Below are positions 17,992 to 18,300 of a stretch of 29,839 nt of DNA, in pieces (the first letter of the stretch is position 1; the number at the start of each line of letters is the position of its first letter). The position numbers were made by a program, and so were the translations under genes. The notes beneath the pieces are model-generated. The model searched no databases. It saw nothing but the letters and a program-made list of their open reading frames with translations, and was not told where the DNA came from. The DNA is from a virus. The DNA lies in UHGV virus genome UHGV-0042155; one strand, 5' to 3'.

Positions 17992-18068
17992 GGCCCTTTA
18001 GCTCAGTTGGTTAGAGCGTGCGACTCATAATCGCCCGGTCGCTGGTTCAAGTCCAGCAAGGGCCACCA
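17992..18068 (+). tRNA. tRNA with CAU anticodon (Ile2/lysidine-type or Met)
   Basis: Cloverleaf read by hand: acceptor ggccctt/aagggcc, D arm gctc...gagc, anticodon loop ctCATaa, T arm gctgg-ttcaagt-ccagc, encoded CCA; resembles enterobacterial tRNA-Ile2. Confidence 0.85.
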
Positions 18069-18070
18069 GA

Positions 18071-18144
18071 CCGCCACTAGCTCATCGGGAAGAGCGGCAA
18101 CCCAGGTGTTGTGGTACGGGGTTCGAGGCTCCGGTGGCGGACCA
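18071..18144 (+). tRNA. tRNA-like gene with non-canonical 6-nt anticodon loop (possible pseudogene)
   Basis: Good acceptor (ccgccac/gtggcgg), D arm and T arm and an encoded CCA, but the best anticodon fold is gcaac-ccaggt-gttgt with a 6-nt loop. Confidence 0.5.
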
Positions 18145-18146
18145 CT

Positions 18147-18222
18147 GCCGACTTAGCTCAGTAGGTAGAGCAACTGACTTGTAATCAGTAGGTCACCAGT
18201 TCGATTCCGGTAGTCGGCACCA
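18147..18222 (+). tRNA. tRNA-Thr (UGU)
   Basis: Acceptor gccgact/agtcggc, anticodon loop ctTGTaa, encoded CCA; very similar to E. coli thrU as recalled. Confidence 0.85.
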
Positions 18223-18225
18223 TAT

Positions 18226-18300
18226 GCGGGCATCGTATAATGGCTATTACCTCAGCCTTCCAAGCTGATGATGCGGGTTCGATTCCCGCTGCCCGCTCCA
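18226..18300 (+). tRNA. tRNA-Gly (UCC)
   Basis: Acceptor gcgggca/tgcccgc, anticodon loop cTTCCaa, T arm gcggg-ttcgatt-cccgc, encoded CCA; very similar to E. coli glyT as recalled. Confidence 0.85.

Follow-up and report, generated by a model that had tools for sequence, protein, structure and literature searches.

A short-loop relative of argN in the tRNA array of a lambdoid prophage is probably a conserved, non-decoding tRNA-like RNA

Results

A compact array of four tRNA-shaped genes

The virus genome UHGV-0042155 (29,839 nucleotides (nt); this whole stretch of analysed DNA is referred to as the window) is a lambdoid prophage of Escherichia coli, 100% identical to sequence of E. coli MS 115-1 and nearly so to that of four other complete genomes. 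It contains a compact array of transfer RNA (tRNA) genes, and this study concerns the second of them, here called slot 2, which has an anticodon loop of only 6 nt. ARAGORN found exactly four genes on the plus strand within positions 17992–18300, separated by spacers of 2, 2 and 3 nt. This bore out the initial annotation of the sequence, in which four tRNA-shaped genes lying 2–3 nt apart had been placed between Q and the lysis genes. Upstream of the array lies the gene for the Q antiterminator (15971–16807, Pfam Antiterm), followed by a reverse-strand open reading frame (ORF); downstream lie a small RNA (sRNA) of the STnc100 type and a lambda-family holin gene.

Slot 1 (17992–18068, plus strand) was predicted by ARAGORN as a tRNA(CAT) and scored 69.2 bits with the Rfam tRNA model. 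It is a tRNA-Ile2-type gene (CAU, ileZ/ileX-like) with an encoded CCA end, and shows 91–93.5% identity to the tRNA-Ile(CAU) genes that are present in all 5426 E. coli genomes compared. The anticodon had been read correctly before; the identity to host genes, together with the PGAP label tRNA-Ile, refines the type to tRNA-Ile2, the lysidine-carrying species. Slot 3 (18147–18222, plus strand; ARAGORN TGT, Rfam 73.8 bits) is a tRNA-Thr(UGU) that matches thrU of E. coli K-12 at 76/76 positions, and slot 4 (18226–18300, plus strand; ARAGORN TCC, Rfam 64.9 bits) is a tRNA-Gly(UCC) that matches glyT of K-12 at 75/75 positions. The near-identity to thrU and glyT, which had been proposed, is therefore complete. 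It supports the proposed origin of both genes by capture of the host genes, followed by compaction in the prophage array, with tyrU and a 116-nt spacer removed.

Slot 2 (18071–18144, plus strand) was reported by ARAGORN as 'tRNA-???'. In the five E. coli genomes with an identical array, PGAP annotates only the Ile, Thr and Gly genes, and slot 2 is left unannotated.

Anatomy of slot 2

The 74 nt of slot 2 read CCGCCAC-TA-GCTC-ATCGGGAA-GAGC-G-GCAAC-CCAGGT-GTTGT-GGTA-CGGGG-TTCGAGG-CTCCG-GTGGCGG-A-CCA. They form a 7-bp acceptor stem starting with C1-G72, a 4-bp D stem, a 5-bp anticodon stem and a 5-bp T stem with one G.U pair; the T loop (TTCGAGG) is normal, the discriminator is A73 and the CCA end is encoded. 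The equivalent of the anticodon arm (18097–18112, plus strand) consists of the stem GCAAC/GTTGT, with the pairs G27.U43, C-G, A-U, A-U and C31-G39, and the loop CCAGGT at 18102–18107. Reading of the sequence and the ARAGORN prediction thus agree with the initial annotation, which had described a second gene with canonical acceptor, D and T arms, an encoded CCA and a 6-nt loop. No fold with a 7-nt loop was returned by ARAGORN for 18071–18144, only a two-base anticodon 'ag'. Slot 2 therefore has the cloverleaf of a canonical elongator tRNA, including a T-Psi-C-type T loop and the 3' CCA, without a 7-nt loop that contains U33 and a purine at position 37.

The cloverleaf has a predicted free energy of -27.8 kcal/mol, against -30.0 kcal/mol for the minimum free energy structure, and the thermodynamic z-score of the single sequence, -0.95, is uninformative. 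The Rfam tRNA model (RF00005, gathering threshold 29 bits) did not match slot 2 even at E<=10, whereas the neighbouring genes scored 65–74 bits. Rfam searches of the window at gathering thresholds, and of 18060–18155 and 17900–18400 at E<=10, gave no family covering slot 2; the matches around it were at noise level (YrlA, 15.9 bits; c-di-GMP-II, 14 bits).

Slot 2 belongs to the argN family

A BLAST comparison with sequenced phages showed that slot 2 is 74.7% identical to annotated argN over 92% of the query, and the region of about 75% identity spans 18066–18150 of the window. Slot 2 shares with argN the C1-G72 acceptor stem, CCGCCA(C/T), and it occupies the argN position, directly after an ileZ-type tRNA-Ile2 gene and between Q and the lysis genes. 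Because of this identity to argN of Shiga toxin (Stx) phages and this position, slot 2 is not a chance fold; judged by homology and location, it is a member of the argN (phage tRNA-Arg) family. The parts of argN needed for decoding are missing: there is no C35 and no Arg anticodon (UCG or UCU), and the loop is one base short.

Relatives were collected by scanning viral, genomic and metagenomic collections with exact-match anchors of 16 nt (acceptor/D), 22 nt (D/anticodon stem) and 21 nt (T/acceptor). Such anchors themselves enforce part of the conservation seen in the segments that they match. We relied on the unanchored halves and on a scan anchored on the neighbouring genes, which correct for this only partially. 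The subclass that shares the body of slot 2 comprised 132 copies in 107 distinct contexts. The loop was 5 nt long in 45 copies and 6 nt in 87, and in none was it 7 nt; the CCA end was encoded in 132/132. There were 26 different loop sequences, the commonest being CCAGGT, TAAAT, CAGGAT and TTAAT. Hosts came from at least nine enterobacterial genera; besides E. coli they included Dryocola, Enterobacter, Pseudescherichia, Rosenbergiella, Citrobacter, Buttiauxella, Pluralibacter, Cedecea and Yokenella. BLAST against the sequenced-phage collection gave no member of the short-loop class.

A missing base in a tRNA gene may in general be produced by sequencing or assembly, and the loop of slot 2 contains a short C run (AACCCAGG). 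The identical 74 nt were found in 27 independently assembled loci, as well as in the five complete E. coli genomes, and all 132 relatives have a loop of 5 or 6 nt. An artefact is thereby effectively refuted, and with it the suggestion that a correction of the sequence might restore a normal loop.

The loops CTTGAG, CTTGGG and CTTGGT found among the relatives resemble the argN loop CTTCGAA minus one base, which makes it likely that the short-loop lineage arose by a one-base deletion in an argN-type loop. The lineage probably began with a loss of decoding.

When only the flanking Ile2 and Thr genes were used as anchors, the gene between them always belonged to the argN family, being Lys-like, Arg(UCU) or short-loop, and only 1 of the 46 distinct slot 2 contents was badly decayed. 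Two curiosities arose from the scans. The 22-nt anchor also matched one unrelated sequence that is not tRNA-like (locus L161, from a Verrucomicrobiae metagenome-assembled genome), and a complete array of the enterobacterial type was found under the label 'Chryseobacterium sp.' (locus L164), a label that probably reflects contamination.

The short loop and decoding

The last base of the short loops is almost always T (U in the RNA), although a decoder would require purine 37 there, and the base at the position of U33 varies. Nearly all 6-nt loops start with C, and the two bases before the last T are purines. The discriminator base is A, U or G within the family, which argues against a conserved aminoacylation identity.

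Slot 2 could be a decoder of an unusual kind if opening of the C31-G39 pair on the ribosome enlarged the loop to 7 or 8 nt, as in a suppressor or frameshift tRNA that reads a doublet or quadruplet. Loops of 8 nt are known in +1 frameshift suppressor tRNAs, and ARAGORN does give the members with a 5-nt loop a stem of 4 bp and the isotypes Phe(aaa), Leu(taa), Ser(tga), Stop(tta) and Pro(agg). In the opened register, however, U is found at position 37 throughout, the base at position 38 is always a G that would pair with C32, and position 33 is not consistently U. For slot 2 itself the 8-nt reading gives CCCAGGUG, with no U33 and with a U before G38, and the closed arm of 5 bp and 6 nt is 3 kcal/mol more stable than the open arm of 4 bp and 8 nt. 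Furthermore, the variable discriminator and the neutral rate of change at the 'anticodon' positions (see below) are incompatible with a fixed amino acid or codon identity. We consider such a decoder very improbable. Since there is no frame with U33 and purine 37, and in view of the discriminator and the neutral 'anticodon' positions, slot 2 is almost certainly not a decoder of any kind.

The body of slot 2 is conserved and its loop drifts

Among 81 contexts collected with the 22-nt 5' anchor only, the unanchored 34-nt 3' half of slot 2 had a pairwise diversity of 0.053, whereas that of the flanks was 0.52–0.58; slot 1 had a value of 0.28. Four haplotypes accounted for 68 of the 81 contexts.

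For an estimate of rates, parsimony steps were counted per column on a neighbour-joining tree for which the tRNA bodies of 42 distinct Ile2-X-Thr arrays were used, any single tree being approximate because of phage mosaicism. The scaffold of slot 2 changed at 0.23–0.35 steps per column, tRNA-Ile2 at 1.14 and tRNA-Thr at 0.07. The flanks gave 5.1 steps per column upstream (15 columns) and 13.7 downstream (12 columns). Those spacer columns that vary had 6–10 steps each, namely 10 in the first spacer and 7 and 6 in the second. The 3' half of slot 2 had undergone 13 steps, against some 190–280 expected at the neutral rate, and an earlier tree agreed with this. The slot 2 body thus evolves about 20-fold more slowly than the neutral flanks, as measured against a benchmark of 35 short flank and spacer columns. 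In this comparison purifying selection acts on it more strongly than on the tRNA-Ile2 gene beside it.

The four inner positions of the loop behaved differently, with 9, 9, 6 and 7 steps, and the first and last loop positions showed 1 and 0 steps, respectively. On the tRNA-body tree the rate of the inner loop did not differ from that of the neutral proxies (Poisson P=0.46). Accelerated change of the loop, through diversifying selection or a mutational hotspot, was also considered, as a tree that included the flank columns had indicated a 2.5-fold acceleration; with the tree of tRNA bodies this acceleration was gone. A diversity-generating retroelement, deamination at Dcm sites and core sites of a site-specific recombinase were dismissed as well, on the sequence pattern only, as the variants do not fit the changes that these would produce; in addition, no reverse transcriptase or recombinase is encoded nearby.

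In 36 distinct short-loop sequences, 97% of the stem cells contained standard pairs, and the only exception that recurred was an A51.C63 mismatch in the T stem. Two compensatory changes were found, G10-C25 to A-U and G52.U62 to A-U. The anticodon stem was invariant except for a purine (R) at position 27, and pair-preserving transitions were otherwise almost absent from the stems, so the constraint appears to be on the sequence and not on pairing alone. With RNAalifold on a mixed alignment, the stems of the acceptor, D and T arms were recovered; that of the anticodon was missed because three rows of this alignment were misaligned.

According to the simplest explanation, slot 2 would be a plain pseudogene, an argN copy that was inactivated by the loss of one base from its loop and has since hitch-hiked between functional tRNA genes. 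The loops that resemble CTTCGAA minus one base, the neutral drift of the loop, the failure of PGAP and Rfam to call a tRNA, the rarity of the class in E. coli and the existence of some broken copies are all as expected for such a gene. The remainder of the gene is not: the 13 steps and the diversity of 0.053 given above are far below the values for neutral sequence, all copies have kept the CCA end, the stems are paired with compensatory changes, and the loop is 5–6 nt long in 132/132 copies. The multiple lesions of an 'armless' relative of the same family, described below, offer a contrasting picture of degradation. We therefore give this explanation little credence. The initial annotation had left a choice between a decaying pseudogene and an unusual tRNA. 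Plain decay does not agree with a body that changes about 20-fold more slowly than its flanks and more slowly than tRNA-Ile2; the unusual tRNA can be upheld only if the term is taken to mean a conserved RNA of tRNA-like form, since decoding is almost certainly absent. Slot 2 is probably not dead, but a member of the phage tRNA family that has become a conserved, working tRNA-like RNA without a decoding role.

The loop itself could be what is used. As a loop-specific decoy or inhibitor of an anticodon nuclease, for example a HEPN nuclease like HepS, slot 2 would offer, beside the stem, an anticodon-like triplet (GGU in the window) that is bound and not productively cut. Loops ending in GGT or GAT make up 77 of the 132, and the constraint on the last base (T), on the first base (C in 6-nt loops) and on the two purines before the T would agree with a recognised motif. 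HepS of Gifsy-1 cuts the tRNAs for Thr, Ile and Ser upon sensing the tail-tip proteins of lambdoid phages (PMC13043305), and its preferred target is Thr(GGU), followed by Thr(UGU), Thr(CGU), Ile(GAU) and Ser(GCU) (PMC13043305). However, the inner loop changes at the neutral rate, being neither conserved nor accelerated, and many loops end in AAT, AGT, AGC, GAG or GGG. Stacking or common descent may account for the pattern of two purines and a U, the short-loop class has no linked nuclease gene, and the explanation was formed after the loops had been seen. It has, in our view, a small chance of being correct.

A processing unit or an RNA with a function of its own

A tRNA-like body could also be kept for the sake of its neighbours. 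In this explanation slot 2 acts in cis, its fold being retained only for the 5' cut by ribonuclease P (RNase P) that frees the 3' end of tRNA-Ile2, and the RNA itself is idle. RNase P uses the acceptor stem, the T arm, the D/T elbow and the CCA end, and these are conserved parts of slot 2. The spacers of 2, 2 and 3 nt and the lack of RNase E sites in the array fit this explanation, the sequence of the loop would be free, and a variable discriminator would be tolerable for RNase P. The 'armless' relative, present in 16 loci, keeps precisely the acceptor stem, T arm and CCA.

Three observations are difficult to reconcile with a unit of this kind. RNase P can do without the anticodon stem, and yet this stem is as invariant as the rest: changes from G-C to G.U almost never occur in it, although the adjoining loop is saturated. 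The body is more conserved than the functional tRNA-Ile2, as the steps per column given above show. Finally, in arrays from which slot 2 has been cleanly removed the same 2-nt spacing is kept, so the array does not need slot 2. We regard the cis explanation as unlikely, though it is the strongest of the alternatives. Our best guess is that slot 2 acts in trans as a tRNA mimic, which we prefer to a cis RNase P unit because the anticodon stem is as invariant as the rest of the molecule, because arrays without slot 2 function, and because the body is more constrained than that of a working tRNA.

Other elements around the array

Several other features of the window were seen in passing. Between the array and the holin gene, the STnc100 sRNA family of Rfam matches over its full length at 18519–18711 on the plus strand (71.7 bits, gathering threshold 47). 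The match ends in a terminator-like hairpin (18681–18700) that is followed by a T run, and the element may be a short late-promoter transcript of the prophage. The stretch 18246–18340, which contains the 3' part of tRNA-Gly and about 40 nt after it, is conserved with many related arrays, and sequence close to the right end of phage HK639 matches it at 95.8% identity (query positions 297–391), which points to a conserved regulatory element lying between the tRNA genes and STnc100.

The reverse-strand ORF between Q and the array (16916–17866) encodes 316 amino acids (aa), is divergent from the array and lies 125 nt upstream of it. It matches phrog_7003; comparison with Pfam, PADLOC and PDB sequences gave no match. 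In other prophages its position is taken by different reverse-strand genes (DUF6037, 195 aa; phrog_5286, 175 aa), and the site beside the array appears to be an insertion hotspot for accessory genes (morons).

Downstream of the lysis genes a reverse-strand ORF of 204 aa (20866–21480) contains an Rx4H motif of the kind seen in HEPN RNases, RNDLAH. It gave a weak PADLOC match to CARF_HEPN (E=0.004) and a match to phrog_5483, and comparison with PDB sequences gave no match. A single-sequence AlphaFold model was all-helical, with a confidence score (pLDDT) of 42 that is too poor for use. This ORF accompanies a short-loop gene in only one other locus; it could be a prophage-borne RNase near the tRNA array. 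On the plus strand at 13757–15661 lies a gene for a protein of 634 aa with Toprim and DnaB-like (AAA_25) domains, labelled only 'AAA family ATPase' in RefSeq, which is probably a primase-helicase of the prophage.

Discussion

The favoured explanation and its weak points

We favour the explanation that slot 2 is a selectively maintained tRNA-like RNA that is derived from a lambdoid argN gene and is dead for decoding, and we put its probability at roughly one half. In such a case slot 2 would be co-transcribed with the array, RNase P would cut at its 5' end and at the 5' end of the next tRNA, and 3' trimming would follow; both co-transcription and release by RNase P are suggested by spacers of only 2 nt and by the encoded CCA. 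This would yield a stable RNA of 74 nt with the L shape of a tRNA that is unable to present an anticodon and stays out of decoding. As it would not decode, its function would have to lie in the tRNA body, that is in the elbow formed by the acceptor, T and D arms, the anticodon stem and the CCA end, and not in codon reading.

We infer that transcription of the array starts at a sigma-70-like promoter of its own. Such a promoter is needed because the gene directly upstream (16916–17866) is on the other strand and Q is followed by a terminator-like hairpin (16896–16913). A candidate picked out by eye (TTGCAA, 17 nt, TATCTT; 17954–17982, plus strand) ends about 9 nt before the first tRNA gene. It agrees with the consensus at 8 of 12 positions, which is under the threshold of 9/12 used in our scan.

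The trans-acting mimic would occupy a tRNA-binding protein or compete for it. Examples would be an uncleavable bait for nucleases that attack the anticodon arm, or for toxins that modify the CCA end, with the short loop serving to avoid the ribosome. The likely arena is formed by the conflicts around prophage arrays in which tRNAs are targeted, as by P2 Old, HepS and PARIS, which act on Thr, Ile and Lys species of tRNA. The fully specified version, a class of non-decoding mimics exapted from argN that act in trans on a tRNA-binding enzyme of defence or counter-defence, is to be seen as unlikely at this level of detail.

A number of points weigh against the favoured explanation. The evidence is comparative throughout, and the neutral benchmark is a small one. 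The short-loop class is rare in E. coli, being present in 5 of 5426 complete genomes, and in four contigs a clean Ile2-Thr junction without slot 2 was found with the same 2-nt spacing, so that slot 2 is dispensable for some phages. A few short-loop copies are visibly broken by T-arm deletions or T-loop mutations, the A51.C63 mismatch occurs in the T stem of 21 of the 36 distinct sequences, and the 'armless' gene is as the cis explanation would have it. No partner was found. Clustering of the ORFs within about 3.5 kb of 215 family loci gave no cluster that was both specific to the short-loop class and general within it; the 316-aa upstream ORF was present at only 17 of 130 loci and also accompanied other loops. 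Comparison of the 204-, 316- and 195-aa ORFs and a few others with Pfam, PADLOC, PHROGs and PDB sequences gave nothing informative. Within the window there was no second CAAC-N-GTTG hairpin with a complementary loop that could serve as an antisense or kissing target, and no enrichment of sites complementary to the slot 2 loop. Finally, with all tRNAs of the cell competing for an enzyme, the product of one gene could hardly titrate it unless it bound with much higher affinity.

The current answers to the question why phages carry tRNAs, namely codon supply and the replacement of cleaved host tRNAs, both assume decoding. The short-loop family would be a natural separation-of-function allele, in which a role of the phage tRNA body is isolated from codon reading, and if the trans mimic is real, slot 2 would be a natural phage 'tRNA' with a benefit unrelated to codon supply. 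There is also a practical side. The family is invisible to PGAP and Rfam and is given arbitrary isotypes by ARAGORN, so that tRNA counts for phages can be distorted by it, as can the prediction of suppressor tRNAs. Lysogens for experiments exist, in the form of E. coli MS 115-1 (NZ_CP146665.1, prophage at about 1.18 Mb) and the strains of the four other complete genomes.

Comparison with known systems

In the literature on 6-nt anticodon loops, on ileZ, argN and argO, on prophage tRNA-like genes and on tRNA decoys, we found no description of short-loop relatives of argN. The tRNA cluster of phage T4 encodes two stable tRNA-like RNAs, species 1 and 2 (rnaC and rnaD), which are co-processed with the array and are not full cloverleaves. 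They offer no more than a lead here, as further small RNAs other than tRNAs in a phage tRNA array, but T4 is a lytic phage of the T-even group, and these RNAs are not known to be related to slot 2 in sequence. With the tRNA pseudogenes and fragments of prokaryotes slot 2 shares the loss of decoding and the lack of a standard annotation call; it differs from them in that its body is under strong purifying selection and its cloverleaf and CCA are intact.

Phage tRNAs that evade tRNases are closer in circumstances. P2 Old destroys tRNA-Thr(UGU), from which a resistant phage tRNA-Thr gives rescue, and an extra tRNA-ThrU of the host type gives little or no protection (PMC12445682). PARIS cuts tRNA-Lys and is neutralised by the tRNA-Lys of T5 (PMC11464382), and changes in the anticodon loops of phage tRNAs have been proposed as a means to evade nucleases (van den Berg et al. 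2023, PMC10264068). Like slot 2, these tRNAs are phage-borne, have an anticodon arm that departs from the host form, and occur in arrays with Thr, Ile and Lys or Arg species. Unlike slot 2, whose loop is too short, they keep a loop that is competent for decoding and replace the cleaved host tRNA. The Thr copy of our array is identical to the host gene, the type reported to give little or no protection from P2 Old. As the published tRNases target the isoacceptor classes carried by such arrays, a conflict-related role for the array is plausible.

The closest comparisons are within the argN family. The tRNA-Arg(UCG) gene argN of the ileZ-argN-argO array of Stx2-converting lambdoid phages takes the same place after a tRNA-Ile2-type gene and has in common with slot 2 an unusual C1-G72 acceptor stem (CCGCCA[C/T]...GGCGG), the D arm and the T arm. 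It has a 7-nt loop CTTCGAA with U33, the anticodon UCG and A37 on a CCAGC/GCTGG stem, whereas slot 2 has the GCAAC/GTTGT stem, a D loop that is one base shorter and a 4-nt variable loop. In argN of an Stx2 phage (locus L231, 405–481) the anticodon stem GCCAGC/GCTGGC contains a paired CAG/CTG of the kind reported as the cleavage site of P2 Old; this pair is present neither in the Lys-like (TCAAC/GTTGA) nor in the short-loop (GCAAC/GTTGT) stems. Further relatives of argN with odd loops on an ATAAC/GTTGT stem were seen in Yersinia phages YeP1-3 (locus L232, 402–479) and at loci L226 and L228. The odd loops include a 7-nt loop CATTGCC (A33, C37), annotated 'tRNA-Pseudo-TTG', and a 5-nt loop CTGAG that is combined with a D loop of normal length and a 5-nt variable loop.

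A Lys-like relative of 66 nt, the 'armless' gene (loci L006, L007, L015 and L016 and 12 others), has lost its whole anticodon arm, whereas acceptor stem, T arm and CCA remain. The arrays that contain it have the order Ile2, armless gene, Arg(UCU), and its lesions comprise a D-stem mismatch and an 8-nt T loop in addition to the lost arm.

The Lys-like gene to which this armless form is related, the common allele of slot 2, is a prophage 'tRNA-Lys(UUU)' with C33 (E. coli SLK172, phage PhiR47_1 and about 570 E. coli genomes), which occupies the same slot in an Ile2-X-Thr-Gly array that is otherwise about 92% identical to that of the window. It also has U73 and an A51.C63 mismatch (L002, 3088–3164; L003, 3088–3164); elsewhere U33 is near-universal. 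A C33 variant of tRNA-Lys could be resistant to nucleases that cut beside the wobble base, such as PrrC and PARIS. This allele has the same acceptor and T arms as slot 2, from which it is separated by three indels and changes in the stems. In contrast to slot 2, it is 77 nt long, has a 7-nt loop (CCTTTAA) and is called tRNA-Lys by both PGAP and ARAGORN, and it may be a decoder with an altered loop.

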